A DNA stretch of 64,000 bases. Source: Terriglobia bacterium (GTDB lineage: Bacteria; Acidobacteriota; Terriglobia; Terriglobales; Acidobacteriaceae). Where the stretch lies: contig CAWFMU010000021.1 of NCBI GenBank assembly GCA_963816865.1, forward strand, positions 24,450-88,449. Direction: 5' to 3'. Position numbers and translations under genes: made by a program. Under the pieces are notes generated by a model. It was not told where the DNA came from. It ran no database searches and saw only the letters and a list, made by a program, of their open reading frames with translations. Numbering within the stretch: position 1 is the first letter of the stretch; each line of letters opens with the position of its first letter. Positions 13,715-33,416 of the stretch are shown here, in pieces.

Positions 13715-13811
13715 GCGGTATCTGGTGCTTTCCAGATTTCCGCGGCACCGGATACGCACCCAGAATGCTATCCTGATTTGTATTCGCAATACGGCCATCT
13801 CTGACCCTCTC

Positions 13812-15504
13812 ATGTCGAATCCAATCGCCCCAGAACCGCTCCGTGTCGCCGAATCCAACGAGTCATTCGAAGATATTCTCACGCAGTACGAAAAGACCCA
13901 TTCCCGCAAGAAGGAAGATAACGGAAAACAGCTCGAAGGAACGGTGATCGCCGTTTCTGCCGAGTCCGTCTTCTTCGATATTGGTTTCAAGACCGAAGGC
14001 ATCATTCCTCTGGCTGCGTTCCAGGGCGCAGCCGTAAAGCCGGGCGACAAGATGCCGGTGTCGGTCAAGGGCCGCGATCCGGAAGGCTACTACGAACTCT
14101 CCCGCCAGAAGATTGCGCAGCCCACGGACTGGTCGTCCTTGGAGCAGGCCTTTGCCGACAAAGCGACGATCGTGGGAATGGTCACCGCCGTAATCAAGGG
14201 CGGCTTCAGCGTGGACGTTGGGGTACGCGCATTCATGCCAGCCTCGCGCAGCGGCGTTCGCGACGCAGCCGACATGGAGAAACTGGTTGGGCAGGAAATC
14301 CGCTGCCGAATCATCAAGCTCGACGCGACCGAGGAAGATGTAGTGGTTGACCGGCGTGCCCTCGCCGAAGAAGAAGAGCGCGGCGTAAAAGAACGCCGCT
14401 ACTCGGAGATCCGCGAAGGCGAAATCGTACGCGGCACGGTCCGCAGCCTCACCGACTATGGCGCCTTCGTCGACCTCGGCGGAGTGGACGGCTTGCTGCA
14501 TGTGGGCGAGATTGCCTGGAGCCGCGTCAACAAACCCGCGGACGTGCTCTCGGTGGGACAGCAGAGTCGAAGCGAAAGTGCTCAAGGTCGATCCCGAGAA
14601 GCGGCGCATCTCGCTGGGCATGAAGCAACTGCAGAAAGACCCGTGGGATTCGGCGGTAGAAAAATACAAACTCGGCGAGCGGGCGCGCGGCACCGTCACG
14701 CGCGTGCTCGAGTTCGGCGCCTTCGTGGAACTGGAGCCCGGAATCGAAGGCTTGATCCACGTTTCGGAAATGTCGTGGGCCAAGAAAGTCAGAATCGCCA
14801 GCGACGTGGTGAAGCCAGGCGAAACTGTGGAAGTCGTGGTACTGGGAGTGAACCAGGCAGAACACCGCATTGCTCTCGGCCTCAAGCAGGCGCTGGGAGA
14901 TCCGTGGGCCAACGTGCCGCAGAGTTTTCCGGTGGGCTCGGTGATTGAAGGGCCGGTCACGAGTCTCACCAAGTTCGGCGCGTTCGTGCAGCTTGCCGAA
15001 GGTATCGAGGGAATGATTCACGTCAGCGATATCAGCGCCGAGAAACGCATCGAATATCCCCAGGATGTGTTGAAGGTTGGACAACTGGTAAAAGCGCAAG
15101 TCCTCTCCGTGGACACGGCAAAGCGCCTGCTGCGCCTGGGCATGAAGCAACTCGTCCCCACCAGCCTGGATGAATACATCGCCGAACACAAGGTCGGCGA
15201 TGTGGTCACGGGACGCATGGGCGAGGTTTCGGGCGGAAATGCCCGCGTTGAACTGGGAGACGGCATCAACGCGACCTGCCGGATTGCCGCCGTCACTGCC
15301 GCGAATAAATCGTCGGAAGAAGTGGTGCAGTCCGCATCGAAGCCAGACTTGTCATCGCTGAGTTCGAAGCTCAAGGCGCACTGGAAGGGCGGAGCCGCCG
15401 CGGTCGAGTCCAAACCCGAAGCCGTGCGCACCGGGCAGATTCGCAAATTCCGGATCACCAAGCTGGATCCTGCGGCGAAGAAGATTGACCTGGAGTTGGC
15501 GTAA
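13812..15504 (+). CDS. rpsA: 30S ribosomal protein S1 (frame-disrupted as sequenced)
   Basis: Six S1 repeats (e.g. GTVRSLTDYGAFVDLGGVDGLLHVGEI, GTVTRVLEFGAFVELEPGIEGLIHVSEM). The reading moves from ORF 13725-14948 to ORF 14458-15504 (+1) at about 14565 (CAG CAG a GTC GAA GCG AAA). Confidence 0.9.
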
Positions 15505-15507
15505 CCG

Positions 15508-16455
15508 GTGAAGAAAATCAGATCACTGGCCGCTGTCGTAGCTTTCCTGACCACCCTTCTGAGCGCACAGCCGGCCCAACCCGACAAGCCCGAGTGGTGC
15601 CGCGCGCTCCCGCGTCCCGAATACAAGACCCTGGAACGTGTCCCGGTAACTGACCCGTGGTTCGAGGTCTATCAAGTCGTTCCGCAGGTCTTCGCCATTT
15701 ACGAACCGCATCAGGCGGAAGAAACAATTTCCTACCTGATCTTGGGTGAAAAACAGGCGCTGCTGTTCGACACCGGCATGGGCATCAGCGACATTCGCAA
15801 AGTTACCGGTGAGCTTACCCATTTGCCCATCATCGTTCTCAACTCCCACACTCACGACGACCACGTGGGCGGCAATTGGCAGTTCGAAACTGTCTACGGA
15901 ATGGACACCGATTTCACTCGTACCAACGCCAAGGGTTCGCGCCAGGACGCGCAGGACGAACTAGGCCCGGGAATGATCTGCGGTGACCTGCCGAAAGGTT
16001 TTGACTCCAAGTCGTACGCAACCCGGCCCTGGAAGATTTCCCGCTTTCTTCACGACCACGACCGGATCGATCTTGGCGGCCGTACGCTGGAAGTTATTTC
16101 TACTCCGGGCCACACTCCGGATGCCATCTCTCTGCTCGATCGCGCCCACGGATTGCTGTTCAGCGGCGACACATATTATCCCGCACCTATCTGGCTGTTT
16201 CGTCCGGAGACCAATCTCGATGACTACGTCGCTTCGGTCAAGCGCCTGGCAGCTCTGGCCCCGCAACTCAAGCTCGTCCTCGGCGCACACAACGTGCCCT
16301 TCGCACAGCCTGAGGTGCTGGCGACATTAGTGACTGCTATTGAAACGGTACGCACAGGCAAAGTACGCGGCGAACCTCAGGATGACGGCAAGGCTCTCTA
16401 CCGTTCCAACGGAATTTCTTTCCTGATGCTGGCGCACTCGCAAGAAAAACAGTAA
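15508..16455 (+). CDS. secreted MBL-fold metallo-hydrolase
   Basis: GTG 15508, signal peptide (MKKIRSLAAVVAFLTTLLSAQPAQ), HxHxDH motif (NSHTHDDHVGG) and a later TPGHTPD motif. Confidence 0.8.
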   Translation: MKKIRSLAAVVAFLTTLLSAQPAQPDKPEWCRALPRPEYKTLERVPVTDPWFEVYQVVPQVFAIYEPHQAEETISYLILGEKQALLFDTGMGISDIRKVTGELTHLPIIVLNSHTHDDHVGGNWQFETVYGMDTDFTRTNAKGSRQDAQDELGPGMICGDLPKGFDSKSYATRPWKISRFLHDHDRIDLGGRTLEVISTPGHTPDAISLLDRAHGLLFSGDTYYPAPIWLFRPETNLDDYVASVKRLAALAPQLKLVLGAHNVPFAQPEVLATLVTAIETVRTGKVRGEPQDDGKALYRSNGISFLMLAHSQEKQ

Positions 16456-16464
16456 TCGCCGGCC

Positions 16465-17820
16465 TTACTCCCGGGGGTAGTCGTCGGCTCTTGCGGGCGG
16501 AGACGTCCCCAACGCGGGCGTGCTGAAATATTGCGGACGAGCTTTTTCCCACTCGACCATGCTCAAACCGGAAGGATCGTAGAGGATGCGTCCCGCCCGC
16601 ACTGTCATGCGTGCGATTAATTTGCCCGTCCCATCCATCCGCGCGAAACCGCAGTCGATGTAACTGAATTTCCCATTCAGCACTTCCAGTACGGCTATGT
16701 CGGCTTCTTTGCCGACGGACAGCGTTCCCAACTCAGGCCGGCGAATCTCGCGCGCTGGATTCACTGTGGAGCGGCGAATGATCTCGTCCAACGGCACCCC
16801 CATCGCCAGGAATTTGGACATGACCTGCGTCATGCTCAGCACGGTGTAGTTGAGGGTATGCAGATCCGTGGAGATGGAATCAGGAATGAAGCCTTGCCTG
16901 ACCGCGGGGACTGCATTGCGGAACCAGAAGCTGGCCGCCCCGTGTCCGACGTCGAAAATCACGCCGCGGGCTCGCGCCTCCGCCATGATGGGATTTAACT
17001 TGCCGTCAGGGAGGATGATGGGAAATTGCTGCGCGAAGACGTGAGTATGGATATCGCCGGGCCGCATTTTCTTGAGGATCAGCTCGGCATAGGTCCTCTC
17101 CGGACGCGGCCAGAAGTCGAACATGACAGGCAGACCGACCGTCTGCGCGCACTCTTCGGCCCGATCCACCGCGGCCCACGGCGGATGTGCCGCGTCCCAG
17201 GGATCGTCGGTCCAGTAGTGCGCCGTCTTTACCCCGACAATGACCTCCGGATATTTGCGGATGGTCTCCGCGCATCGCTTCACGTCCATCTGGTCTACGG
17301 TTTGCTCGAGACTACCGTTCATGCCGTTGCCCACGATGTTCAAAAAAGCCAGCACGCGAACTTTGGCTTGATCGATGACCTCTTCTTTCTCCTGAAGAAA
17401 CGTTTCGGCGCCGGCGCTGCCCGCATCCACCAGGGTCGTGACGCCGGATTGCAGCGCAATGTCGGCGGGAATGCCCAGGGGCTCGATGTGGGCGCGAGCG
17501 TCGGGAGCAAACCAGTTGAGCGGCGCTCCGCCATGACCAACGTGAGCGTGAATATCCACCAGGCCGGGCGTGACGTACAGACCTGAAACATCGACGACCT
17601 TCCCGGCCTGACCGGCGGGAATATCTTTTTCGACGGCAGCGATCTTCCCGCCAGAGACTGCGACGTCGAAGTTTCCGTCCACATGATTGGCGGGGTCGAT
17701 CACGTGCCCGCCCTTCAACAGCAGATCATAGCGAGGCGTTTGTGCCTTGGCGTTGGGTGTGAGAAGAATCATGACAAGTATGAGTGTCGCTCCGACACAT
17801 TTTTGGATCGCTTCCCGCAT
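16465..17820 (-). CDS. secreted amidohydrolase/deacetylase-family metallohydrolase
   Basis: ATG 17820 (MREAIQKCVGATLILVMILLTPNAKAQ). It has an HxH metal site (GLVDIHAHVGHGG) and a dihydroorotase/D-aminoacylase-like composite-domain N-terminus (DLLLKGGHVIDP...). Confidence 0.75.
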   Translation of the reverse strand: MREAIQKCVGATLILVMILLTPNAKAQTPRYDLLLKGGHVIDPANHVDGNFDVAVSGGKIAAVEKDIPAGQAGKVVDVSGLYVTPGLVDIHAHVGHGGAPLNWFAPDARAHIEPLGIPADIALQSGVTTLVDAGSAGAETFLQEKEEVIDQAKVRVLAFLNIVGNGMNGSLEQTVDQMDVKRCAETIRKYPEVIVGVKTAHYWTDDPWDAAHPPWAAVDRAEECAQTVGLPVMFDFWPRPERTYAELILKKMRPGDIHTHVFAQQFPIILPDGKLNPIMAEARARGVIFDVGHGAASFWFRNAVPAVRQGFIPDSISTDLHTLNYTVLSMTQVMSKFLAMGVPLDEIIRRSTVNPAREIRRPELGTLSVGKEADIAVLEVLNGKFSYIDCGFARMDGTGKLIARMTVRAGRILYDPSGLSMVEWEKARPQYFSTPALGTSPPARADDYPRE

Positions 17821-17847
17821 AGTCAGCCCTCTTGATGCTTGCATTCA

Positions 17848-19174
17848 CTAAGGTGCCACACTCTGGCTGCCGGCGGCACTCACTGGGTCCTGGGGACTCA
17901 GGATTCGCGTGGGATCAACCATCAGCCACGCCGCCGCTCCCAGCAGACACAACCCCGCGGCCACAAGGAATGATGCGGTCCAACCAAAGCGGGCGGCGAT
18001 TGCGGGCGTGAGTGACGCCGTGACGGCTCCGCCAATTTGCGCCCCCATGTTCATGAAGCCGGAAACCGAGCCGGATGCCTTGCCGGCAATGTCTGCGCTC
18101 ACTGACCAAAACGAACTCTGCGACAAGTAGAGCGCCCCCGCTCCGCCGGCCAGAACAATGCTCGCCACGCGCGCACTGTCAACCTGGGAGCCGAAGGCGA
18201 TAAATATTCCAGCCAGGGCGATGCTGAACGCCGCCAGGCCGCACCGTCCCAATCGGGGGCCGCGCCACTTCGTGAGCCGGTCGCTGATAGCGCCCCCCAC
18301 AAAGCTGCAGACTGACATCGCCACCGGTGGAAGCATGGCGTAAAACGCGCTCGCTTTCAGATTCAGCCCGCGGACCTGGGCCAGGTAGATAAAGAACCAG
18401 CTGAAGAAAATCCAGGCGGTGTAGCCGAAGCAAAAATAGCTGGCTGTGACCGCCAGCACTTCCCTGCTCCGAAAGACAATTCGCCACGGAACCAAACCTC
18501 CATCGCCCGTATTCCCAGCTTCGATCGGCAATCCAGATCGAATCGTCGCCAGCTCAGACTGCGGACACACACGGATGTTCCGCGGGCGTGTCGCGAGCCA
18601 TGAGATACCAGACCGCTCCCGCGATCAGGCCGATGATGGCACACGCCCAGAACGACGATCTCCAGCCGTAGTGCAGCATGAAGTAGGTAATCAACGGCGG
18701 TGAAAGGCCGGCGCCCGCGCCGACGCCGGCGAAAATCCAGCCGTTGGCGACACCGCGCTCGTGCGCCGGAATCCATCGCGCCACAAATTGGTTCGACGAA
18801 GGATAAACGACTGCTTCCCCGGCGCCGAGGAGAAAGCGGATCGCGATGAACAGAAACAGCGCCCCACGGATTGTGGACGGCACCAGGGCCGTCAGTCCGG
18901 TGAAGATTCCCCACCATACGACGCCCGCGGTCAGCACGCGGCGAGGTCCGAAGCGGTCGGCCAGTCTTCCGCCTACGGTTTGAAACAGCGCATAACCGAT
19001 CAGCATCGCGCTGAACACGTAACCCAACTGCACGTTGCTCAGTCCGTATTCCTCGGCGATGGAACGTCCGGCAACCGAGATGTTCACCCGGTCAAGGTAA
19101 GAAACCGCGCTCAGGATGAACAGCCAGCACACCAGAAACCAGCGCACATGGCTCGTCCTGGCGTCGTTCACCAT
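17848..19174 (-). CDS. MFS transporter, anion:cation symporter-like (frame-disrupted as sequenced)
   Basis: The N-half is ORF 18554-19174 (SYLDRVNISVAG..., GGRLADRFGPRRVL). The C-half is ORF 17848-18570 in the next frame. There is one net +1 shift near 18560. Confidence 0.8.
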
Positions 19175-19217
19175 CGTTCCTCAGAAATGTCGTTGGTCAG
19201 GGATGCCCGCATCACTC

Positions 19218-20483
19218 TCACGCGGAATGCTCGCGGAAGATCCGGACCAGTTGATCAGCGACAATCTTGTCTTCGCCCGGCTGCAGCATAAACGAGTTCA
19301 TGGACGAGGCCCGGCTTCTCTTCACCGGCCCCATCACAATCGCCGGCTTGGATTCTCTCAGAAGTTGAGAGACTTGCTTCGGAGTCAGAGAGATTTTCGC
19401 CGCGTCCCAGGTAATCTGCATATGAGGCACGTGATTCGCAATGTCGGGAACGAAAAATGCCGTGCTGACTCCCGGCACCCGCACGATCTGCCGGGAGATT
19501 AACTCCAGCCGTCCCTGCCACTCTGTCGCCAGCGCCTCATGATCTTCGTTGAGATAGAGCTCCAGCGCTTTCACCATCCCAATAATTTCTTCCTTGCCCA
19601 CTTTCGAACTGCGACCCAACGTGTCCTCGTGCGGGACTGTTGTTCAGCAGTGCGTAGGCCACCAGATCTTTGCGCCCGATCAGCAATCCGGCGCACTGCG
19701 GACCGCGCATGGCTTTGCCCCCGCTGAAGGTGACAAGGTCGTAGCCCATGTTGGTGTAATCCCAAAGATGCGAGACCGGCGGCGTGTCGGCCGCCGCATC
19801 GTTCATGCACGGAAGCTTGTATTCCTTCGCCAGCTTCACCCACTCATCCACTTTGATCTGTCCGGCGGCATTGGCAAAGTTGGTGAAGTGCATCATGGCG
19901 GTCCGCGGGCCGACCGCCTGGCGCAATTGGTCGCGCGTTTCAATCTCGATCAGCTTTACGCCGGTGGTGCGGAGTTGGTGGTCGAACGGGTTGCGATGGG
20001 ATTTCTGGATGATGACTTCCGACTTCAGTCCGGTGAGGTCCGGCAACTGCTTGATGAATGCTTCGTTGTCGCCGGTAAGGATTCCGGCCAGTCCTGACTG
20101 AATCGCAGCCGCCGCGCCAGAAGTCACCAGCGCGGTGTACCCATCCGGCAGCTTGAGCATTTCGGCGATTCGCTTGCCCGCCGCCACCTCCAGTTCAGGC
20201 ATGCTGACGAAGTGGCGTCCGGCCTGGGCCATCACGGCTTCCAGTTCCGGGCGCAGGATGGAGCCGCCCAGCATGGTCATCGTCCCTTCACAATTGATGA
20301 CGGTGGTCACTCCCAGCTCTTCGTAGGGATTGCCCGATTGGCCGAAGCCGCTGACTTTGGCGCTCGTCTTCGTGCCGCGAACAGCTTCTTCGACGCCATC
20401 ATCGAACCGGGAATCATCGAACCAGCAATCATTCCCAGTGTTCCAAGAAAGCTGCGGCGATTCCATCCCTTCGCTAGTCGCAT
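19218..20483 (-). CDS. Tat-exported SelA-like / DgaE-like PLP-dependent enzyme (frame-disrupted as sequenced)
   Basis: ATG 20483 after AAGGAGAG gives MRLAKGWNRRSFLGTLGMIAGS, a twin-arginine leader. The body is in ORF 19537-20466 with a PLP-lysine context (FSGGKAMRGPQCAGLL). The C-terminus is in ORF 19218-19619. Confidence 0.7.
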
Positions 20484-20527
20484 GATCTGCTCTCCTTTTA
20501 TGCCTGCGGCGAGTCTAGGTTCGAGCT

Positions 20528-21028
20528 TTATTTCCGCACGATGGCGGCAATGCAGTTGATCTCCAGCATCGAATTCCCCGGAAGCGCGGCCACAGCCACC
20601 GTGGTGCGCGCCGGACCGCCGTTGGGAAAATACGTCTTGAATATCTTGTTCATGGGCTCGTAGTAATCGATGCTCGCCAGGTAAACCGTGAGCTGCAGCA
20701 CGCTGTCCATGGTGCCGCCGCCGGTTTCGACCAGCTCTTTCACGTTCTCCATCACTTTCGTGGTGTGGCTGTCGATGTCATCTTTGCCCACAGGTCCGTT
20801 CGAGTTGGCGCCCTGCCCGGCGATGTAGAGCAGGCCGTTGTGCGTGATCAGTGCAGTGATCATCTGCTTTCCGTCCGCTGGCTTGCCATCCCGGCCCAGC
20901 TTGCGCACGCCGGCATCCCGGGTCTTGGCCTGGCCGCTCGTGGCCATCAATGTTCCTGCGCCAACGGCAGACATTACAGCGGCGAACGAGGTCATCAGCT
21001 TTCTACGATTGAAGAATGTCGAGGTCAT
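20528..21028 (-). CDS. exported RidA (YjgF/L-PSP) family protein
   Basis: ATG 21028 after AAGGAGA. The leader is MTSTFFNRRKLMTSFAAVMSAVGAGTLMATSGQA (Tat-like RR). The RidA core reads LLYIAGQGA...MDSVLQLTVYLASIDYYEPMNKIF...PARTTVAVAALP. Confidence 0.8.
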   Translation of the reverse strand: MTSTFFNRRKLMTSFAAVMSAVGAGTLMATSGQAKTRDAGVRKLGRDGKPADGKQMITALITHNGLLYIAGQGANSNGPVGKDDIDSHTTKVMENVKELVETGGGTMDSVLQLTVYLASIDYYEPMNKIFKTYFPNGGPARTTVAVAALPGNSMLEINCIAAIVRK

Positions 21029-21086
21029 GATGAAATCTCCTTGGATTTTGTGGCTTCGGTGATTATTCGTTTTGACTGACAGCGTT

Positions 21087-22745
21087 TTACGGCAATGCAA
21101 AACTGAAAATATCGCTTCCGGCGGCAACCGCCACGTACTGCTTGTCTAGAACGGCATAGCTCATGGGTGAAGCGCCGAAGTCCTGTCCTGTATTGAAGTG
21201 CCATAGCGGCTTTCCGGTACGGGCGTCTACTGCCTCGAATGATTGCGCGTCATCGCCAAAAAAGACCAGGCCCGTGGCCGTGGTCATGGTTCCTCCTGAC
21301 GAGCGCGCACGCCCTATTTGCGGATAGCTCCATGCGAAAGACTGCTTGTCCAGATCGTAGGCAAGAAGTATTTTCTGTGATGCTTCCCCTGGAATTCGCT
21401 TTACTCCGGTCGAGTAAAAAGTTTTCCCTTCCGCGAAATCCTGCGGCTTGTAGAAAAACATCTCGCACTCCTCAAGGGCGAGGAAATATACCAGATGGGT
21501 AGACTCGTTGTAAGACGGCGCAAACCAGTTGGTGGCGCCGCCGTAGCCGGGACATATTCGGGTACCTTCGGGCGTCGGCTTAAGACCGGAAACATTGGGC
21601 CGACCGTGCGCATCAACCCCCTTCGCCCACGTCAGCTTTTTCACGAATGGTACAGCTGACAGAAATTTCCCATTCGCGCGATCCAGCACATAGATGAAAC
21701 CATTCCGATTGGCCTGCACCAGGAGCTTGCGCTGCTCGCCCCGATAAACGGCATCAATCAGGATCGGGGTTTCAGTCGCATCGTAGTCGAAGAGATCGTG
21801 AGGGGTGAATTGAAAGTGCCACTTCAATTTTCCCGTGTCCACATTGAGCGCCAGCACGCAATCGGTGTACAGGTCGTCGCCTGGCCGCACCGCGCCATCG
21901 AAATCCGGACTCGGGTTGCTGGTCGTCCAGTACAGCGTGCCGGTTTCAGCGTCATACGTGCCCGGCATCCAGGTGGTTCCGCCGCCGTGCAGATAACTGT
22001 TTCCGGGCCAACTCTCGGAACCGAATTCTCCGGGAGCGGGAATGGTCCAGAAACGCCAAACCAGCTTACCGGTGTTCGCATCATAGGCGGCCACAAAGCC
22101 TCGCACGCCATCGTCTCCGCCTGAGGTGCCCACGATCACCTTGTCGTTCACTACCAGGGGCGCCGCGGTCGCGCCGTAATTCTTGTTCCAGTCCGCGTAG
22201 GCGACGTCCCACAGCAAGTGCCCCGAACGGGCGTCCAGACAGAGCAAATGGGCGTTGTCGGTCTGCCGGTATACACGCGTGTGCCACACTGCCACGCCGC
22301 GACTGAGATGACCCGACGCATCATCAACCAGTCCCTGGGAGATCGGCCTCACGTGATGCCAGATCACGAGTCCCGTGCGCGCATCAAGGGCGTAGGTATC
22401 ATTTGCCGAAGTCACGAACATGACGCCGTTCACCACTACCGGCGTCCCTTCCATCCGGTTGGAATTGCTGGAGTGGAATACCCACTGCGCTCGCAGCTGC
22501 GCGACATTGGTGAGATTAATCTGGGACAGGCTGCTGAACCGGCGCCCGGTCAAATCTCCGTTATAGGAAAGCCAGTTGTCTCCTGAGGGCGAGGTCAGTA
22601 GGTCGGCGGGGCGCACATCGACAACCACTGCTCTCGACACTGGCAAATCGCCAGACGCCGCCACCATCAGGCAACCCAGAAAAACAGCGATCGCCAACGC
22701 CATCCTAGGGGTCGTTCTTCCGGTGAAGTGCCTTCTCGCTGCCAT
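21087..22745 (-). CDS. secreted PQQ-dependent dehydrogenase (methanol/ethanol-family beta-propeller)
   Basis: Signal peptide (MALAIAVFLGCLMVAASG). Repeated A-x-D-x-x-T-G-x-x-x-W propeller motifs (ALDARTGLVIWH, CLDARSGHLLWD, AYDANTGKLVWR, ALNVDTGKLKWH, AVDARTGKPLWH). The catalytic region is HDLFDYD. Start is 22745 or 22751. Confidence 0.85.
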   Translation of the reverse strand: MAARRHFTGRTTPRMALAIAVFLGCLMVAASGDLPVSRAVVVDVRPADLLTSPSGDNWLSYNGDLTGRRFSSLSQINLTNVAQLRAQWVFHSSNSNRMEGTPVVVNGVMFVTSANDTYALDARTGLVIWHHVRPISQGLVDDASGHLSRGVAVWHTRVYRQTDNAHLLCLDARSGHLLWDVAYADWNKNYGATAAPLVVNDKVIVGTSGGDDGVRGFVAAYDANTGKLVWRFWTIPAPGEFGSESWPGNSYLHGGGTTWMPGTYDAETGTLYWTTSNPSPDFDGAVRPGDDLYTDCVLALNVDTGKLKWHFQFTPHDLFDYDATETPILIDAVYRGEQRKLLVQANRNGFIYVLDRANGKFLSAVPFVKKLTWAKGVDAHGRPNVSGLKPTPEGTRICPGYGGATNWFAPSYNESTHLVYFLALEECEMFFYKPQDFAEGKTFYSTGVKRIPGEASQKILLAYDLDKQSFAWSYPQIGRARSSGGTMTTATGLVFFGDDAQSFEAVDARTGKPLWHFNTGQDFGASPMSYAVLDKQYVAVAAGSDIFSFALP

Positions 22746-22825
22746 CCCCATGCTCAATTGAATCGATTTAATTGAACCGCGCATTATCCAACGAAAATTG
22801 CGTGAACGCAATCACGAACCACGCA

Positions 22826-23608
22826 TCACAATCGGCCAAACCGTTTGACTGCTTCCTGGATGGATTTGTACTTCTCGATGATCGAATACATGGAGTGTTC
22901 CTTGAAATCCATTTCCTGGGCAAGCGCGAGCACCTCTGCTGCTTTCGCGCGCGGCACGATCACAACACCATCGCCGTCGGCGGCGACTACGTCCCCCGGT
23001 CGTACTTCTACGCCATCACACGAGACGGGAATATTCGACCCGGCAAAGCGGTAGTGACCGACCGAGGTTGATGGCACAATTCCGGTGGCATAAACCGGAA
23101 AACCTATCTTGCGCAATTGCCCGACGTCGCGCACTCCGCCATCGATGACCGCGCCGGCATATCCGCGCGCCGACATGGTCGTGCCCATCAGGCCGCCCAT
23201 TCCGGCGATATCGGCTCCGTCTTCGACCACCATCACCCACACGGAACTCGGCGATCCCTGGTCGATGGCCGCCAGCATGCCGCTCAGGGCGCCGGGATCT
23301 TTGTTGCCTTCGTCCTTACTCAACTTAACGGTGAGCGCGAAACCGGCGAATTTGGCCGGGAAAATCGGCTGCATCTTGTGCGACAGGTACATCTTCCGGC
23401 CGGTGAGTTGCTCCAATGCATCGGATACCGATGCCACCTCAACGTGACGATAGCTTTCGAGCAGCGCCTCGTTTTCGTTTGCCTGGGAACCGCCGGAGGA
23501 CTGAGCCAAAAGGTTCGAGCTCAGCTGCCAGAACGCACAGGTGAACAAAATTCCGGCAATCACAAGTGAACTCTTCCGCGAAGACCTCAAATATTGCAAT
23601 TTGTTCAT
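22826..23608 (-). CDS. exported RraA-family protein (class II aldolase / oxaloacetate decarboxylase-like)
   Basis: ATG 23608 with the leader MNKLQYLRSSRKSSLVIAGILFTCAFWQLSSNLLAQS. The RraA core reads VASVSDALEQL...GAVIDGGVRDVGQLRKIGFPVYATG. Confidence 0.75.
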   Translation of the reverse strand: MNKLQYLRSSRKSSLVIAGILFTCAFWQLSSNLLAQSSGGSQANENEALLESYRHVEVASVSDALEQLTGRKMYLSHKMQPIFPAKFAGFALTVKLSKDEGNKDPGALSGMLAAIDQGSPSSVWVMVVEDGADIAGMGGLMGTTMSARGYAGAVIDGGVRDVGQLRKIGFPVYATGIVPSTSVGHYRFAGSNIPVSCDGVEVRPGDVVAADGDGVVIVPRAKAAEVLALAQEMDFKEHSMYSIIEKYKSIQEAVKRFGRL

Positions 23609-23707
23609 CTCGTCCTCCAGGTTGTATATATGAACGCGGACTCTAGCACTCCTGTCGAGGGAATGTGAAGAGAGAATTCTTGCAACGGAAAAAGGAGCCG
23701 ACACGAA

Positions 23708-24184
23708 ATGAATAGAAGAGAGTTCAGAGGCTGGCTGTCCAAGACCGTTCTTACGCTTGCCGTGCTTGCACTGTTTTTCCAGGCGTCAACGCTGACGGGT
23801 TTCGCCGAAGAGCGAAAAGTGGTGAAGCTCCCGGGAACCGCCAATCTTCCATTCAGTGATGGGGTGATCGCCGGCGACACGCTCTACGTCGCCGGGCAGG
23901 AAGGCATTGATGCCAACGGCAAACTTGTGCCCGGTGGAACCGGCGCGGAAAGCAAGGCGGCGCTCGCCCGCATCGAAGATATCGTCCACGCCGCCGGTTT
24001 CGATTTGAAAGATATTGTTTCCGTCACGGTGTACCTGGCTGACATTCATGATTTCCCTGAAATGAACGTGGCCTACAAGGCCGTCATGCCCGATCCCAAG
24101 CCAGCTCGCGCGACGGTGCAGGTCGCGGGACTGGTGAACAACGCGCGCGTTGAGATTTCCGCGATCGCGGTAAAGAGAAAATAG
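23708..24184 (+). CDS. exported RidA (YjgF/L-PSP) family protein
   Basis: Leader MNRREFRGWLSKTVLTLAVLALFFQASTLTGFA. RidA core: LYVAGQEG...IVSVTVYLADIHDFPEMNVAY...PARATVQVAGL. Confidence 0.8.
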   Translation: MNRREFRGWLSKTVLTLAVLALFFQASTLTGFAEERKVVKLPGTANLPFSDGVIAGDTLYVAGQEGIDANGKLVPGGTGAESKAALARIEDIVHAAGFDLKDIVSVTVYLADIHDFPEMNVAYKAVMPDPKPARATVQVAGLVNNARVEISAIAVKRK

Positions 24185-24188
24185 CCAG

Positions 24189-25007
24189 ATGGCCAGTTGG
24201 TTGCGATGCTCGCTGTTGCTGCTGGCAGTGGCAGGTCATCTGTGCGTGCCCGGTCGATTCCAGGCCCAGCAAGTAGACAAGGTTTCTGAGAGCAGGAGTG
24301 AAGGCGCGGGCAAGCAGATCTTCGCGACCACTTGCGCTGCTTGCCACGGGCTCGACGGCGGAGGTGGAGAGCGCGGTCCGGACATTTCCCGGCGGCGGGA
24401 AGTTCGACGCTTGCCGGACAAAGCTCTGCTGCAGATTGTCCGGGAAGGAGTTCCAGCAACCGGCATGCCCGCCTTCGGTTCTCTTGGTCCGGTCCGAATT
24501 CAGGCTGTGGTTCGCTACCTGCGAAGCCTGCAGGGTCAAGCCGGAGCGGCTGATCTTTCCGGCGATCCAAAACAAGGAAAATCTCTCTTCTTTGGGCAGT
24601 CAGGGTGCTCGCAGTGTCACACGATAAAAGGCGAGGGCGGCTTCATCGGCTCGGATCTTTCCCGCTACGCCGAAGGTCAGTCGGCAGCCGACATTCGAAC
24701 CGCCATCACCGACCCCAACCGAAATCTCGATCCTCGAAAACGAACCGTAGTCGTTACTACGGGGGACGGGCAAACCCTGACCGGCATTGCACGTAATGAA
24801 GACAACTTCTCTTTGCAGCTTCAGACCATTGACGGCACACTGCATCTGCTCAACAGAGTGGAGTTGCGGAGCATCGACTATCAACCCCGTTCACTGATGC
24901 CCGGCGACTATGGATCGAGGCTCAGCCGTCAGGATCTCGACGATCTCGTCACCTATTTGCTCAGCGTTGCGCGCAACACAAATAAACCTCAACTGGAGCA
25001 GGAATGA
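24189..25007 (+). CDS. secreted di-haem c-type cytochrome
   Basis: Signal peptide plus two CxxCH motifs (CAACH, CSQCH). Its stop overlaps the next start (ATGA at 25004-25007). Confidence 0.8.
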   Translation: MASWLRCSLLLLAVAGHLCVPGRFQAQQVDKVSESRSEGAGKQIFATTCAACHGLDGGGGERGPDISRRREVRRLPDKALLQIVREGVPATGMPAFGSLGPVRIQAVVRYLRSLQGQAGAADLSGDPKQGKSLFFGQSGCSQCHTIKGEGGFIGSDLSRYAEGQSAADIRTAITDPNRNLDPRKRTVVVTTGDGQTLTGIARNEDNFSLQLQTIDGTLHLLNRVELRSIDYQPRSLMPGDYGSRLSRQDLDDLVTYLLSVARNTNKPQLEQE

Positions 25008-26029
25008 GAACCTTGTCAGGAATGAATGCGTTCCTCGGCCAACTGATAGTCGACCTCCGGCCGACAATCGTGGCTCGCGCCGGCATCGTTGCGTTGTTCA
25101 TCGGTTCACTCTTTGCCGCGGCCTCATCTGACGCCCCAGCCCGGACATTTAAGCTCACGGCTGAGTCTCCGGCATTCTGGAAGCTGCTCGACCACAAAGC
25201 GAAGCTCACTCGAGTAGCCGGCGGCTTCGGCTTCACGGAGGGACCGGTGTGGGATGAGTCCGGCTTCCTCTATGTCAGCGACGAGGAGCAGAACAAGATC
25301 TATCGCGTCTCGCTCGATGGCAACAAACAGGAAGTAATCTCCCTCGGCGATCCGGATGGCAACACCTACGACCGGCAACTCCGCCTGATTGATTGCGCCA
25401 GCGTTCTGCGCGCCATCATCGTCGTGACGCCGGAGGGAAAGTACTCCGTCCTCGCCGATCGTTATGAGGGGAAGAAACTCAATAGCCCTAACGACGTTGT
25501 GATCGGCCCCGACGGAGCAATCTACTTTACCGACCCTACGCTCGATCTGGTCAAGGGTGAGCAACAGGAAATTCCGTTCCAGGGCGTATATCGCCTGGAC
25601 GACAAAGGCGGCGTCCGCCTTTTGACCAAAGACCTGACTCAACCCAATGGGCTTGCCTTTTCGCCCGACGGAAAACACTTTTACGTGGATGACAGTGAGC
25701 AGAGAAACATTCGCGTGTACGACGTCGCACCCGACGGATCGTTGAGCAGCGGCCGAATCTTCGGCGAGGAACCGGGCGAACCGAACGACGGCGTGCCCGA
25801 CGGAATAAAAGTTGACCGCGGTGGCAACCTGTTTGTGACCGGTCCAAAAGGTATCTGGGTCTGGGACGCGCAAGGTCACCATCTGGGTACGATCGAGATG
25901 CCGGAGCAACCTGCCAATCTCACCTGGGGAGACCGTGATCACCAGACGCTCTACATCACGGCGACGACCTCGGTATATCGCCTGCGTACCAGCACCCGGG
26001 GGTTCGTGCCTTATCGCACGCATCGCTGA
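25004..26029 (+). CDS. SMP-30/gluconolactonase/LRE-family protein (lactonase-like beta-propeller)
   Basis: Hydrophobic leader followed by typical motifs: GFTEGPVWD, NSPNDVVIGPDGAIYFTDP, PNGLAFSPDGKHFYV, PDGIKVDRGGNLFVTG. Intact. Confidence 0.8.
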   Translation: MRTLSGMNAFLGQLIVDLRPTIVARAGIVALFIGSLFAAASSDAPARTFKLTAESPAFWKLLDHKAKLTRVAGGFGFTEGPVWDESGFLYVSDEEQNKIYRVSLDGNKQEVISLGDPDGNTYDRQLRLIDCASVLRAIIVVTPEGKYSVLADRYEGKKLNSPNDVVIGPDGAIYFTDPTLDLVKGEQQEIPFQGVYRLDDKGGVRLLTKDLTQPNGLAFSPDGKHFYVDDSEQRNIRVYDVAPDGSLSSGRIFGEEPGEPNDGVPDGIKVDRGGNLFVTGPKGIWVWDAQGHHLGTIEMPEQPANLTWGDRDHQTLYITATTSVYRLRTSTRGFVPYRTHR

Positions 26030-26036
26030 ATGTCGA

Positions 26037-27650
26037 ATGTCATTCCTCGGTCAATGTCTCGTGCTGGGCTGCGCCATCTCGCTGTCGGCGTGGACTTGGC
26101 TGCCGGCTTCCGCCCAGGCGGCGTCTCGCGGCCCGGGTACTCAAGCAACTGCGCACGCGGAGCGAGGAATCGATTTTGCTCGCGCCGGACAACTGGACAA
26201 GGCAGAAGCAGAACTGCGTCAGGCAGCCGAGTTGGCCCCGTCCGATGCGGAGGTGCTTGGCTGCTCTGGGAACGATTCTGGCTCAGCAGCACAAGCTTGA
26301 TGAGTCCACTGAACTGTTAAAACGGGCATTGCGAATAAACCCATCCAACCTGACCGTCCGCCGTTACCTTGCGGCAAATCTGTGGCAGCTTCACCGCTAT
26401 CCTGAAGCGAAAGAAAACCTGCAAATCATTCTGAAGCGGAAGCCGGACGACAAAGCAGCGCAACTGTTGCTCGGCATGGTGTCGGAAAACATGGGCGACT
26501 ATGCGACCGCCGCTCGAATGCTGGCTGCAGTGCCTGATGAAGTCAGCGAGCAACCGGAGTCTATCGCCGCGTTGGCCCGCTCCTACTATCATCTGCACCA
26601 AACAGAAAAAGCGCGCGAGACGCTAGAGCAATTGACAGCTCACCCGGCGGGACCGCAGGCGGCGTTCCTCGGCGCCCAGATCGCCGACGAGATGCAGGAC
26701 TATTCGACTGCCGAAAAGCTGCTTGCATCCGTTCCGGCCGCACTTCTCGACCAGCCCGGCATCCAGTACACGATGGCACTGGTCGAATATCATGCTGGGC
26801 ACTTTGACAGATGCCAGGACATTCTCGAAACCCTGATTGCTTCCGGAAACAAGAACTGCCCCAATCCTCAATTTGCTGGGGTGGTGCCATCAGAAGCAGG
26901 GGCAGCCACAAGAGGCGGTGCAAGCGCTCGAAGAGTCCAGTCATTCTGGCTCCGGCTGACGAGGCTAACTATCTCGACCTGACCAAGATTCTCCTGGCCC
27001 AACACGCGCTGCCATCCGCCTTGCGTGCCGCGAAGCGAACGGTAGATAGTTTTCCGAACTCCGCTGCTGCTTTCGAATTGCAAGGGCTGGTTGAGGTGAG
27101 GATGGGACAGTTCACCGATGCGGTTCGCTCCTATACTCATGCCGTGGAGCTTGATCGCTCCCGTCCCGGACCGATTCTTGGACTCGCCCAGGCACAATCT
27201 GCCGCCGGAATGAGCAAAGACGCTGCCGCCAACTTTGAAACGGGAATTAGGAGATTTCCGCGCGACGCGCGTTTCAAGGCGCAGTATGCCAGCGTACTGC
27301 TAAAGCAATCCGAGACCGGCGACGACGTCGCATCGGAAGCGAAAGCCGAGCAACTGCTGCGGTCCGCTCTGGCGCTTGATCCATCGCTTTCGGATGCGCA
27401 TTACCAATTGGGCAATCTCGCGTTGAACAAAGGCCGTGTGGCAGAGGCTCAACAACACCTGGAGCAAGCGGTGAAACTCGACGGCCAAAACGCGGCGGCA
27501 CATTTTGCGCTGTCTCGCGTCTACCGGCGTCTCGGCCGTCGGCCGGAGGCCGCGCACGAAATGGAGCTGTACGAAAGCCTCAAGCAAGAACCGGGAAATG
27601 ACACCTCGACGCCAGCACCTGCGGTACCACCCGAGCAACCTCATCCGTGA
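26037..27650 (+). CDS. secreted multi-TPR protein (frame-disrupted as sequenced)
   Basis: Signal peptide MSFLGQCLVLGCAISLSAWTWLPASAQA. TPR helices continue through ORFs 25935-26300, 26176-26982, an unlisted frame (APILNLLGWCHQKQGQPQEAVQALEES) and 26811-27650. That makes three successive +1 shifts. Confidence 0.75.
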
Positions 27651-29429
27651 GCACTAAACTTCCAGTTCGTCTCGGCACTGTTCTCTTTGCCTCCATTCTC
27701 GCGTGGTGTCCAACTCCATTGACTGGACAGGCCCCTGTCCGCGAGACTCCGATCTTCACCGACGTCACCCGCGAAGCCGGCATCACCTGGCGTCAATTCA
27801 GCGGAGAATCGCCTGACCGTTTTCTCATCGAGACCATGGGTGGGGGCGTCGCCTTTCTCGATTTCGATGGCGACGGGTGGCAAGACATTTTTTTTGTAAA
27901 CGGAGGCGAAACTCCGCACGGCAAGAGCCCGAACCCGGTGCGCAACGCGCTCTACCGCAATCTTGGAAATGGAAAGTTCGAGGATGTAACCGCGAAGGCC
28001 GGGCTGGATCGTCTCCCGTTCTACGGAATGGGCGTTGCCGTCGGCGACTACGACAACGACGGCCATCCTGACCTGTTCATCAGCGGATTCCCTTCCAGCG
28101 CCTTGTTTCACAACAACGGCAACGGCACGTTTACCGAGGTCACAGACAAGGCTGGAGTCAAGAATCCCGGCAAGGTGGGCGGCCAGCGCGGCCTGGTTCG
28201 ACTATGACCGCGATGGCTATCTCGATCTGGTAGTCACCAACTACGTGCGCTTTTCATTTGATGATCCCAAGAAATGTGAAGTGAACGGCATCCGCAGCTA
28301 TTGCGAGCAGCTGGCATATCAGGGCATGCCTCTCACTCTGTACCACAACAACGGCGATGGAACTTTTACCGACGTCAGCGCGCCATCCGGTTTCGACAAA
28401 CTGGTGGGCAGAGCTCTGGGTGTTGTTGCCATCGACTTGAATGACGACGGCTGGACCGATCTGTTCATCGCGCGCGACGCTTCGCCCAATCTGCTGCTCA
28501 TCAACCAACACAACGGCACTTTTGCAGATATCGCCGTCGATGCCGAGGTCGCCTACAATCAGGACGGGCTTGCCAAGGCGGGTATGGGCGTCGATGCCGG
28601 CGACGCCAACGGCGACGGCGTGCCCGACCTCGCCGTGACCAACTTCAACGATCAATACCATTCCCTTCTGATCGGACCCAGGAACGGGTCCCAGACGGAT
28701 CCTTACCAGGATCGAACCGTCGCCTCCCATATGGCGGCGTTGAGCAAGTCATACGTCGGGTGGGGCGTCAAGTTTCTCGACTTCGACAACGACGGCAATC
28801 TCGATCTGATGTTCGCCAACGGACACATCAACTCCGTGATCGAAACCACGCGCACCGATGTGAAGTACAAGGAACCTCCGCTCTTGCTGCGCAATCTCTC
28901 GCAGGGAATTTTCCAGAACATGCGAGATCAGCGCCGGGCCGGCATTCAGTTCCGCCTACAGGGCCCGTGGACTGGCTACGGGTGACTTCGACAATGACGG
29001 CGGTCTCGATGTTGTCTTCACCTGCCTCAATGACGCCCCGGTGCTGCTGCGGAACAACGTCGGGCAGCACAATCGATGGATCGGCTTCGAACTCCAGGGA
29101 ACGGTCAGCAACCGTGACGCGATCGGAGCAAAGATCACGGTCGTGTTCGCCGACCGAAAGCTGGTGCGGTGGATTACGGGAGGCTCGAGCTATCTGTCAG
29201 CGCATGATAAGCGCGTGATCGTGGGACTTGGGAGTGGACCGCGGTACATCGGAGCCCGAGGTTGAGATCCGCTGGCCCAACGGAACGGTGCAGCGAATAT
29301 CCAAAGCTGAAGCCGAATCAATATCACAAGATTGTCGAACCCGCCGCCGATAAAGCCACAGGCCCGCAATTCGAAGCAAATGCGCACACGGCCGACACCA
29401 ATCTCAATGAAATCTGTAGCGCGCCATGA
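27647..29429 (+). CDS. CRTAC1-family protein (FG-GAP/VCBS repeats + ASPIC/UnbV C-domain; frame-disrupted as sequenced)
   Basis: GTG 27647 overlaps the upstream stop. FG-GAP motifs recur (FLDFDGDGWQDIF, VGDYDNDGHPDLF, WFDYDRDGYLDLV, AIDLNDDGWTDLF, FLDFDNDGNLDLM, TGDFDNDGGLDVV). The UnbV-like part reads NRDAIGAKITV...GGSSYLSAHDKRV...VEIRWPNGTVQ. There are about 4 net +1 shifts and the 3' end is uncertain (29350-29429). Confidence 0.75.
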
Positions 29430-32500: not shown

Positions 32501-33331
32501 TTCGACTCGCTCAGCGGCGACACTCCGCCTTTCGCCAGCTCGATCTACCACGCCTTGCAGGTTCGTATGGAGAAGTCGTACGCCAACGGTCTGCAATTCC
32601 TGGCGAGCTACACCTGGTCCAAGTCCATTGACGATGCTTCTTCCACCGACGACAGCGTCACCTGGCTGGGAGGTACAACCAGCTTGCAAGACCCCAACCG
32701 TCCCGACTTGGAGAGATCGGTCTCGACCTGGGATACGCCTCACATCTTGCAGTTCAGCTATGTCTACGAGTTGCCCTTTGGCAGAGGTAAAAAGTTCGGC
32801 GGCGGCATGAATCGTGCGATGAACGGCGTCCTCGGAGGATGGCAAATCAACGGAACCTACCGCTACACCAGCGGCAGGCCCATGCACATCACCCTGAGCG
32901 GAGGTCAGGAAATACCAACGTATTCATCGGACCAGCGGCGTCCCAACCTGAACGGCCTTCTCAAGCGAAATACCGGCCCGGATTTCGTCGACAATTATTT
33001 TGCCAACGCGCAGGACGTCCTCAGTCAGCCGGATGACTTTACGATTGGCAATGCTCCCCGATCCATCACCAGCGTCCGTCAGCCAGCCACCAACAACACC
33101 ACCATGTCCCTGTTCAAACAGTTCACCGTTCGAGAGGGTATGCGCTTCGAGTTCCGTGCCGAAGCGTTTAACGCTTTTAACCATCCCCAGTTTTGCGGAC
33201 CCAATGGGGGAAATACCAGCGTGAGTTTTGATGGCAGCGGGAAGATCGACAACACCTCAGACTTCGCGGCCATCACCGACACCTGCATCAATTCGCGTGA
33301 GTTGCAGCTGGCGCTGAAATTCTACTTTTAG
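29591..33331 (+). CDS. large TonB-dependent receptor with CarboxypepD_reg-like N-domain (N-terminal 250 nt frame-disrupted as sequenced)
   Basis: The leader and LYSGSISGTVTDPSGAVIP...GRYLLRPIPPGTYSV span three frames (29591, 29655, 29788) before the 1169-aa ORF 29822-33331. The protein is plug/barrel-like with a terminal ...LALKFYF aromatic residue. Confidence 0.8.
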
Positions 33332-33416
33332 CAATGCAGGCGCGAGCGTCCACGTTCGTGCGGCAGTGGCACTGTCCTGTCATTTTTCAGCCAGTGATTC
33401 TGGCGGAGGCATTGGT

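Follow-up and report, generated by a model that had tools for sequence, protein, structure and literature searches.

We describe a cluster of ten genes, most of them encoding predicted exported enzymes, in a 64,000-nt stretch of DNA from a Terriglobia bacterium (GCA_963816865.1, contig CAWFMU010000021.1, 24,450-88,449 of the forward strand), which is termed the window throughout. The source genome is a metagenome-assembled genome (MAG) that is 78.6% complete and consists of 40 contigs. Families were called from the listing of open reading frames (ORFs) and from Pfam and NCBIfam profile searches of the window proteins. These bear out the ten families and places given in an earlier reading of the DNA made from the letters alone, the sequence-only reading:

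15508-16455, plus strand: metallo-beta-lactamase (MBL)-fold hydrolase, predicted exported (PF00753)
16465-17844, minus strand: amidohydrolase/deacetylase-family metallohydrolase, predicted exported (NF006689)
17848-19174, minus strand: major facilitator superfamily (MFS) transporter of the anion:cation symporter (ACS) type (D-galactonate/sugar-acid), with one frameshift near 18560 (PF07690)
19218-20483, minus strand: SelA/DgaE-like pyridoxal 5'-phosphate (PLP) enzyme, putative amino-aldonate ammonia-lyase, with a twin-arginine translocation (Tat)-type leader, in three frames
20528-21028, minus strand: RidA protein with Tat-type leader MTSTFFNRRKLM... (PF01042, 85.1 bits)
21087-22751, minus strand: pyrroloquinoline quinone (PQQ) dehydrogenase (PQQ-DH) of the alcohol-dehydrogenase type, predicted exported, without a haem domain (PF01011)
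22826-23608, minus strand: RraA-like protein with the fold of HMG/CHA aldolase (HMG/CHA, 4-hydroxy-4-methyl-2-oxoglutarate/4-carboxy-4-hydroxy-2-oxoadipate), predicted exported (PF03737)
23708-24184, plus strand: second RidA protein, predicted exported (PF01042, 108.6 bits)
24189-25007, plus strand: di-haem cytochrome c, predicted exported (PF13442/PF00034 and TIGR02603)
25004-26029, plus strand: SMP-30/SGL gluconolactonase-like protein, predicted exported (PF08450)

The minus-strand genes form an operon in the order RraA-like, PQQ-DH, RidA, SelA-like, MFS and amidohydrolase, headed by the RraA-like gene, and a plus-strand operon (RidA, cytochrome c, SMP-30) diverges from a point ~100 bp upstream of it. 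The start codon of the PQQ-DH gene is uncertain within 22751 to 22811. The reported ATGA overlap of the cytochrome c stop and the SMP-30 start is seen in the sequence at 25004-25007. The MBL hydrolase gene converges on the amidohydrolase gene, and no NCBIfam model reached its own cut-off with the hydrolase.

The soluble enzymes of the cluster appear, from their N-termini, to be exported. Leaders were scored by an in-house heuristic, not SignalP, for which the background is 20.7% of the 2,688 non-membrane ORFs in the genome; an earlier and looser heuristic, which flagged 49% of all ORFs, was discarded for this stricter one. Eight of the nine soluble cluster products are flagged as leader-bearing, while the ninth, the SelA-like protein, starts with MRLAKGWNRRSFLGTLG, which holds a canonical twin-arginine motif and is preceded by an AAGGAG ribosome-binding site. 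The RraA-like protein carries the signal peptide MNKLQYLRSSRKSSLVIAGILFTCAFW..., and the RidA protein encoded at 20528-21028 has an N-terminal extension of ~40 residues relative to solved RidA proteins. Species-representative genomes were then scanned with the SelA-like alignment, which gave at least 584 relatives; 80 loci were kept, and the conservation of leaders was scored over these 80 loci from other species, with orthologues and paralogues taken together. A twin-arginine motif followed by a hydrophobic stretch (Tat-like) is found in 84/85 SelA-like relatives. RidA relatives have a leader in 74 of 77 cases and a twin-arginine motif in 50 of the 77, and leader-like N-termini occur in the RraA-like (39/42), SMP-30 (32/34), PQQ-DH (31/36) and cytochrome c (28/38) relatives. 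The arginine pair of the second RidA is not kept in the orthologue at locus L011 (compared loci and genomes bear L and G numbers), and its leader is probably of the Sec rather than the Tat type because the pair is not conserved. The view that nearly all products carry Sec or Tat leaders is thus upheld, and the leaders are conserved across species.

The membership of the cluster was examined in 30 loci with a length of at least 15 kb and a lyase at least 75% identical to the fragment in the window. Gene presence was scored by tblastn, since longest-ORF calling in the GC-rich loci gave antisense shadow ORFs (‘u482’, ‘u407’, ‘u190’). RidA is present in 30/30 loci, the RraA-like protein in 29/30, PQQ-DH and cytochrome c each in 27/30, the MFS transporter in 25/30 and SMP-30 in 24/30. 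The MBL hydrolase and rpsA each occur in 3/30, and the amidohydrolase and a penicillin-binding protein (PBP) gene each in 2/30. Within the genus the whole region is syntenic, including rpsA and the PBP gene, a conservation that is of little use for inferring function. At least four gene orders retain the full set of families. The PQQ-DH gene is relocated upstream, beside a second SelA-like/RidA pair, in L033, L043, L044, L053, L054 and L064; L083 has the same set in a re-ordered layout; and the RraA-like gene is displaced in L035, L047 and L065. Paralogous clusters of the genus (L027, L029) rejoin PQQ-DH, SelA-like and RidA with cytochrome c or SMP-30. The core is therefore a set of seven families, namely RraA-like, PQQ-DH, RidA, SelA-like, MFS, cytochrome c and SMP-30, as this set is kept through rearrangements while the flanking genes change. 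Neighbourhood conservation, proposed earlier as a check, thus holds for seven families in ~30 species-level loci of Terriglobia.

These data bear on the possibility that two unrelated exported modules, one for oxidation and one for deamination, were co-inherited side by side with no shared pathway. Both modules occur together only in clusters of a single class, so that shared ancestry inflates the counts; the deamination module is found alone in other phyla, and the two modules lie partly on divergent strands. This explanation is nevertheless distinctly unlikely, given that the flanks are lost (S1 in 3/30, PBP in 2/30) while the core is kept (24-30/30) in four or more gene orders. Moreover, the lyase operon itself contains the PQQ-DH gene, with the RraA-like gene on one side and the RidA gene on the other, and second, diverged copies pair PQQ-DH, SelA-like and RidA anew in the six loci with a relocated PQQ-DH gene as well as in L027 and L029.

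Two of the ten genes fall outside the core. The MBL hydrolase, listed by the sequence-only reading among the enzymes of the island, accompanies the cluster only in the three loci that retain rpsA and is probably a genus-level neighbour, not a pathway member. Its candidacy as the lactonase of the pathway was ruled out on the same ground, as it tracks the rpsA flank and not the cluster. The amidohydrolase, which that reading also placed in the set, is indeed present but belongs to the cluster at just two loci. It recurs beside SelA-like paralogues in the same genus (L026, L030), in other Acidobacteriota (L097, L104) and in Planctomycetota (L089 from Singulisphaera, L095, L105). It scores 382.7 bits on NF006689 (PRK09237 type; cut-off 371), bears the HxH metal motif ‘DIHAHVGHGG’, and has the amidase 8JE0, 2OGJ and 2ICS (EF_0837) as solved relatives. 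We regard it as an optional accessory and putative N-deacylase.

The closest solved homologue of the SelA-like lyase is DgaE (7LC0, E = 7.6e-31). The 309-aa middle fragment of the lyase stays under both curated cut-offs (NF047797, the DgaE model, 98.6 vs 600 bits; TIGR01437, 123.5 vs 385.3 bits). DgaE is a cytoplasmic enzyme that acts on a 6-phosphate made by the phosphotransferase system (PTS), has no RidA partner, and yields a 2-keto-3-deoxy acid that feeds 2-keto-3-deoxy-6-phosphogluconate (KDPG) aldolase (PMC9529869). Alignment of 72 exported homologues to 7LC0 reveals that the catalytic core is shared. The PLP lysine, Lys213, within an S-G-x-K motif whose Ser-Gly is invariant, and Asp189, which binds the pyridine nitrogen, are present in 72/72, and the equivalent of the carboxylate-binding Arg226 is kept in 64/72, with Lys in 7. 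Equivalents of His162 and His163, by contrast, are found in 0/72, where Ala and Asn/Asp stand instead and the DgaE loop is two residues longer. The equivalent of Arg301, a member of the phosphate cluster of DgaE, is His in 56/72 and Arg in 1/72; Arg332 and Arg346 of the same cluster fall past the reliably aligned region. In DgaE, His163 is the C-3 proton donor, and the H163A variant releases the enamine (Phillips et al., PMC9529869). As the equivalent of this residue is lost, the exported family is predicted to release the enamine, which would give a role to the RidA protein that always adjoins it. A non-phosphorylated substrate, which the loss of Arg301 would fit, is likewise predicted, in keeping with a location outside the cytoplasm.

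The RidA proteins score 80.6 and 94.6 bits on TIGR00004 (cut-off 106.25). The catalytic arginine of their P-A-R motif, which we take to be Arg105 of enterobacterial RidA, is kept in 49/49 relatives and aligns with the PAR of solved RidA-family proteins. RidA normally acts as a homotrimer. We also note that at L027:7956-9128 (-) and L029:10746-12068 (+) the RidA partner is a single protein of 390-440 aa with three tandem Rid domains (Pfam), which looks like a covalent pseudo-trimer.

The classic role of RidA is the quenching of 2-aminoacrylate, and this would suit a second explanation, in which the lyase substrate is a β-hydroxy D-amino acid or N-acyl-D-amino acid of the D-Ser/D-Thr type. The amidohydrolase would then deacylate it, the SelA-like enzyme and RidA would convert it to a 2-oxo acid and ammonia, and PQQ-DH, cytochrome c and lactonase would oxidise something else. 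DgaE is specific for D-amino acids, and the analogous deaminase OngC deaminates D-Ser and D-Thr (PMC9529869, PMC9537276). The amidohydrolase/SelA-like/RidA module of Planctomycetota is also found without PQQ-DH, cytochrome c or lactonase within 10 kb. We consider this explanation unlikely, as in Terriglobia the lyase module keeps PQQ-DH, cytochrome c and lactonase through rearrangements, and paralogous clusters repeat the PQQ-DH/SelA-like/RidA combination. The lyase module is further linked to genes for a kinase of 2-keto-3-deoxygluconate (KDG), the aldolase Eda, a KdgR-like regulator, a glycosidase and a NagB-like protein, which are described below.

PQQ-DH scores 291.7 bits on the Pfam propeller PF01011 (cut-off 26.7) and stays under the cut-offs of TIGR03075 (methanol/ethanol family, 469 vs 480.05) and, by a wider margin, of the Acidobacteria-specific TIGR04528 (‘acido-empty-quinoprotein’ group A, 511.7 vs 650). 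Its closest solved structures are the quinoprotein alcohol dehydrogenases ADH-IIB (1KV9) and lanthanide-dependent PedH (6ZCW). In common with these and with XoxF it has a PQQ propeller of eight blades and, besides the catalytic Asp, the additional Asp of the D-x-D motif; among relatives the lanthanide-type signature D-Y/F-D is present in 33/33. The differences are the absence of the vicinal Cys-Cys (0/33) and of a haem domain, an Asp in place of the Glu of ‘GAEYG’, and a linkage to a lactonase and a mutarotase-like protein instead of alcohol metabolism. The mutarotase-like protein (DUF4380) adjoins PQQ-DH in 11/30 loci. The di-haem cytochrome c scores 113.3 bits on the haem-binding domain TIGR02603 (cut-off 68), contains the two CxxCH motifs CAACH and CSQCH, and is the putative electron acceptor of PQQ-DH. 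SMP-30 matches PF08450 over positions 1-245 of 246 with 171.9 bits (cut-off 26.3), from which lactonase activity is predicted.

The PQQ-DH clade, with relatives in L031-L083, is distinct in having Asp for the metal-binding Glu (SGGDDG) and an invariant His148, which stands two residues after the site of the missing Cys-Cys. The idea that this histidine mimics His262 of membrane glucose dehydrogenase was dropped, as it sits two residues off the Cys-Cys position.

The MFS transporter scores 156 bits on TIGR00893 over its N-terminal half. Recurrent partners of the cluster were found by clustering all ORFs of the 80 loci. In L039, L051, L037, L045 and L060 the genes for the SelA-like enzyme, the MFS transporter and PfkB and/or Eda follow one another on a single strand, almost without gaps. 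The PfkB kinase, whose best matches are KDG-kinase and aldolase/sugar-kinase fusion models, occurs in 8/30 loci, and Eda, a KDPG/2-keto-4-hydroxyglutarate (KHG) aldolase that passes TIGR01182 (192 vs 156 bits), in 10/30; neither has a leader. An IclR regulator with KdgR as its best NCBIfam match is present in 15/30. In the window genome, kinase-like and Eda genes are found on other contigs (C29, C4). The KDG-kinase-like and KDPG-aldolase genes after the MFS gene, together with the KdgR-like regulator, suggest that a keto-deoxy acid is imported and cleaved inside the cell. The imported product is thus probably a 2-keto-3-deoxy-aldonate that is taken through semi-phosphorylative Entner-Doudoroff steps. 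A leaderless NagB-like protein is found with a second MFS transporter in 9/30 loci. Such pairs, at L037:17631-19844 (-) and L050:13471-15633 (-), comprise a member of the glucosamine-6-phosphate deaminase/6-phosphogluconolactonase superfamily and the second transporter, and they diverge from a discoidin glycosidase gene. The pair may be a parallel cytoplasmic branch; no NagB-like homologue was found in the incomplete window genome.

For the RraA-like protein, membership of the fold family is evident (PF03737, 125.8 vs 24.5 bits), whereas the scores lie under the aldolase/decarboxylase cut-offs (TIGR02798, 102 vs 304.5; NF006731, 110.7 vs 179). The best solved relative is the HMG/CHA aldolase 3NOJ, with which the protein shares the fold and the Arg-Asp pair for binding of 2-oxo acid and metal; it differs in its signal peptide, in the missed curated cut-offs and in a Gly in place of Asp102. 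Across relatives, the equivalents of Arg123 and Asp124 are kept in 44/44, and Asp102, which holds metal-bound waters, is Gly in 36/44.

Alternatively, the pathway could end in the periplasm, with the RraA-like protein as a class II aldolase that cleaves the keto-deoxy acid to pyruvate and an aldehyde, the PQQ-DH possibly oxidising the aldehyde, and the MFS transporter importing pyruvate or a small acid. KDG is a 4-hydroxy-2-oxo acid and so belongs to the substrate class of HMG/CHA aldolase. The near-universal RraA-like gene heads the operon, its product keeps the Arg-Asp pair throughout, the PQQ-DH is most like alcohol/aldehyde dehydrogenases, and the Singulisphaera module lies near a lactate-permease-family transporter and pyruvate carboxylase. 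We hold such an ending to be improbable, as the kinase and aldolase genes after the MFS gene and the KdgR-like regulator imply import of a six-carbon acid. The Gly at the Asp102 position and the missed aldolase models (110.7 vs 179) also count against it, and it would leave the cytochrome-coupled lactonase without a source of lactone. Furthermore, FlDet of Flavobacterium sp. UMI-01, an RraA-like protein that acts on a keto-deoxy acid, is a 2-keto-3-deoxy-glucarate dehydratase/decarboxylase (PMC8563752); it is likened to the window protein by fold. FlDet indicates that the RraA-like fold acts on keto-deoxy sugar acids, and not necessarily as an aldolase. The terminal aldolase of the sequence-only reading is not needed, given the cytoplasmic KDPG-aldolase genes after the MFS gene in relatives.

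In 14/30 species a further RraA-like paralogue, likewise predicted exported, is encoded between the SelA-like and MFS genes, mostly on the opposite strand (L031:11317-12234 (-), L039:11391-12302 (-) and L037:11349-12299 (-)). The window has no such gene, its SelA-like gene being directly next to the MFS gene. In Singulisphaera a weaker RraA-like match (~30% identity; L089:11320-12516 (-)) stands beside the SelA-like gene. The RidA/amidohydrolase/SelA-like/RraA-like module of Singulisphaera sp. PoT is flanked by the lactate-permease-family transporter and, on the other side, by biotin ligase and pyruvate carboxylase (L089:5330-6982 (+) and L089:13340-16846 (-)). These flanks hint at pyruvate or another small 2-oxo acid as the product, which may hold in that phylum.

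Further along the window lie genes that resemble partners of the cluster in other species:

29822-33331, plus strand: TonB-dependent receptor-like outer-membrane protein (PF25183 and PF13620)
33366-35594, plus strand: discoidin-domain glycosidase of the clan GH-A type (glycoside hydrolase family 79 (GH79)-like fold), predicted exported
35832-37942, minus strand: frameshifted paralogue of the discoidin glycosidase

The receptor is 51% identical to a receptor inside or beside the cluster in other species and is likely, on this similarity, to be part of an extended locus. The glycosidase is 57% identical to a partner gene in L033, and in 14/30 loci a discoidin glycosidase is encoded no more than 10 kb from the cluster. 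Both paralogues, of ~720-740 aa and predicted exported, have a clan GH-A barrel into which a discoidin (F5/8 type C) domain is inserted and a C-terminal β-sandwich, and no Pfam catalytic domain was detected in them. An AlphaFold model of the glycosidase (pLDDT 67.9) gave as its best Foldseek match the GH79 β-glucuronidase of Acidobacterium capsulatum (E ~1e-15, TM 0.58, 17% identity). The discoidin proteins may form an undescribed glycoside-hydrolase family. In a PDB search the discoidin domain also matched chitosan-binding modules, those of a Paenibacillus chitosanase (E = 0.003), but the match was set aside as too weak to serve as evidence of substrate. By their gene families, the mutarotase-like protein, the NagB-like protein and the glycosidase (11/30, 9/30 and 14/30) form a context pointing to sugars or amino sugars. 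Between the cluster and the receptor, at 26176-29000, lie TPR and FG-GAP (CRTAC1/UnbV-like) genes. The TPR/FG-GAP/receptor trio also comes after the cluster in L055 and may belong to the extended locus.

We propose that the cluster may constitute a periplasmic amino-sugar oxidation/deamination module of Terriglobia, the keto-deoxy acid being imported afterwards, and give this reading an even chance. Substrates, compartments and the order of steps are all deduced, from gene families, leaders, co-conservation and active-site residues. An aldose-type amino sugar, possibly freed by the clan GH-A glycosidase and taken up via the TonB-dependent receptor, would enter the periplasm. There PQQ-DH would oxidise it at C1, with electrons passing to the di-haem cytochrome c, and SMP-30 would open the lactone to a 2-amino-2-deoxy-aldonate, while the amidohydrolase would deacylate an N-acylated sugar. 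The Tat-exported SelA/DgaE-like enzyme would then eliminate the 3-hydroxyl to give an enamine/imine, which the exported RidA proteins would hydrolyse to ammonia and a KDG-type 2-keto-3-deoxy-aldonate. The sugar-acid MFS transporter would import this acid, and cytoplasmic KDG kinase and KDPG aldolase would finish its breakdown; the exported RraA-like protein would act on some 2-oxo acid of the pathway. The order of oxidation, lactone hydrolysis, PLP-dependent elimination and RidA action, put forward in the sequence-only reading, fits the genomic context, whereas the aldol cleavage with which it ended would here take place in the cytoplasm.

Several observations weigh against the proposed module. 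The scheme gives no defined step to the RraA-like protein despite its presence in 29/30 loci, and the PQQ-DH has its nearest relatives among the alcohol dehydrogenases (1KV9, PedH) and not among known sugar dehydrogenases. By a search that does recover pqqC where it is present, this gene was found in 1/24 genus genomes, and the PQQ-DH therefore probably relies on scavenged PQQ. The KDG kinase and Eda genes follow the MFS gene in only 8-10/30 loci and are not adjacent to it in the window genome. The DUF4380 and NagB-like assignments lie below curated cut-offs, and the GH79/GH51/GH44-like (clan GH-A) fold of the glycosidase does not point to an amino sugar. The loci represent one class and a few Planctomycetota, so their counts are not independent. 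Lastly, two of the ten cluster genes are interrupted in this assembly, by three frame breaks in all.

A cytoplasmic counterpart of the proposed route is known. The ong cluster of Pseudoalteromonas prydzensis, which serves oxidative chitin utilisation, converts 2-amino-2-deoxygluconate (GlcN1A) to KDG and NH3, a conversion for which RidA is essential (Jiang et al. 2022, PMC9537276). It encodes a deacetylase, a PLP deaminase, a RidA-family protein, KdgK, a TonB-dependent receptor and a periplasmic glycosidase, with KDPG aldolase in some genomes (PMC9537276). The two systems share their logic and end product, as well as a TonB-dependent receptor, a periplasmic glycosidase, an amidohydrolase-type deacetylase, a PLP enzyme and RidA. 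The likeness is functional, not one of family membership. The ong deacetylase, deaminase and RidA are leaderless and act in the cytoplasm after a sodium:solute symporter (SSS) has imported N-acetylated GlcN1A (GlcNAc1A), whereas the same three enzyme types carry leaders in the window. The deaminase OngC belongs to fold type III of the PLP enzymes, in contrast to the SelA-like lyase of fold type I, and the ong deacetylase is a relative of D-aminoacylase, in contrast to the PRK09237-type amidohydrolase. Oxidation relies on an extracellular lytic polysaccharide monooxygenase (LPMO) in the ong system and on PQQ-DH, cytochrome c and lactonase here; the regulators are MurR/RpiR and, in relatives of the cluster, IclR; and the ong system has no RraA-like protein.

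A second parallel is provided by the chitinotrophic archaeon Natrarchaeobius, for which a route from glucosamine (GlcN) through glucosaminate and a keto-deoxy acid to the Entner-Doudoroff pathway was predicted (PMC12343721). In its chitinase clusters, genes for a DgaE homologue and a Rid-family (‘RutC’) protein lie together with those for an IclR regulator and a sugar dehydrogenase (PMC12343721). That route is archaeal, cytoplasmic and purely predicted, depends on an NAD(P)-dependent glucose dehydrogenase, and is without quinoprotein, cytochrome, lactonase or RraA-like protein. Literature searches returned no paper that describes an exported version of the pathway. The earlier statement that no such pathway had been described stands for the exported set but not for the underlying chemistry, as a cytoplasmic conversion of an amino-aldonate to KDG for which RidA is essential has been published (PMC9537276; DgaE, PMC9529869). 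From these comparisons, what is new is probably the relocation to the periplasm of a chemistry for which only cytoplasmic versions are otherwise known.

A large part of the organic nitrogen in soil is contained in amino sugars that stem from chitin, chitosan, peptidoglycan and microbial necromass, and the Acidobacteria rank with the most abundant bacteria of soil and with the least understood. The fullest form of the proposal is a complete extracytoplasmic route in soil Acidobacteria, with its deamination half in Planctomycetota. It would combine a lanthanide-type quinoprotein running on scavenged PQQ, a cytochrome c leading to the respiratory chain, a Tat-exported PLP lyase that lacks the proton donor, exported RidA and an undescribed step on the RraA fold, with ammonia released in the periplasm and the keto-deoxy acid alone entering the cell. 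We offer this form tentatively, as possible rather than probable. If true, the route would yield respiratory electrons from the first oxidation, free ammonia outside the cytoplasm and import only the keto-deoxy acid. It would further provide a clear example of periplasmic work by RidA, RraA-fold and SelA-like PLP enzymes, and would extend the roles known for these families and for the Tat export of PLP holo-enzymes. The loss of His163 together with the gain of a dedicated RidA constitutes a directly testable structure-function prediction.

The frame breaks in the cluster were examined against the intact orthologues in L011, where the SelA-like protein has 420 aa and the MFS transporter 432 aa. 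In the window the SelA-like gene is split over three frames and the MFS gene over two. Comparison with the L011 DNA, which is 88% identical, locates a 2-bp insertion near 20376 and 1-bp insertions near 19632 and 18560; the rest of the SelA-like and MFS sequence shows no other damage. Frame breaks are dense within ~25 kb of the window (13725-15504 in rpsA, 17848-20483, 26176-28985 and 35832-37942), at a density typical of an unpolished long-read MAG, and pseudogene calls in this genome need read support. If the SelA-like and MFS frameshifts were real, the cluster would be a decaying array of pseudogenes, and it can be said for this explanation that the breaks concentrate in two of the ten genes and that the indels lie outside obvious homopolymers. 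We consider it very unlikely, because the neighbouring essential gene rpsA is broken likewise, as are the TPR gene, the FG-GAP gene and one glycosidase in the window, and because the remaining DNA matches the intact orthologue without further damage. In other genus assemblies of 10-40 contigs the same genes also show random breaks, which differ from those seen here (G006, G010, G016 and G022; the amidohydrolase in L011). The frameshifts are thus probably errors of long-read assembly, given that essential rpsA and other window genes are split alike and that other assemblies are broken elsewhere.

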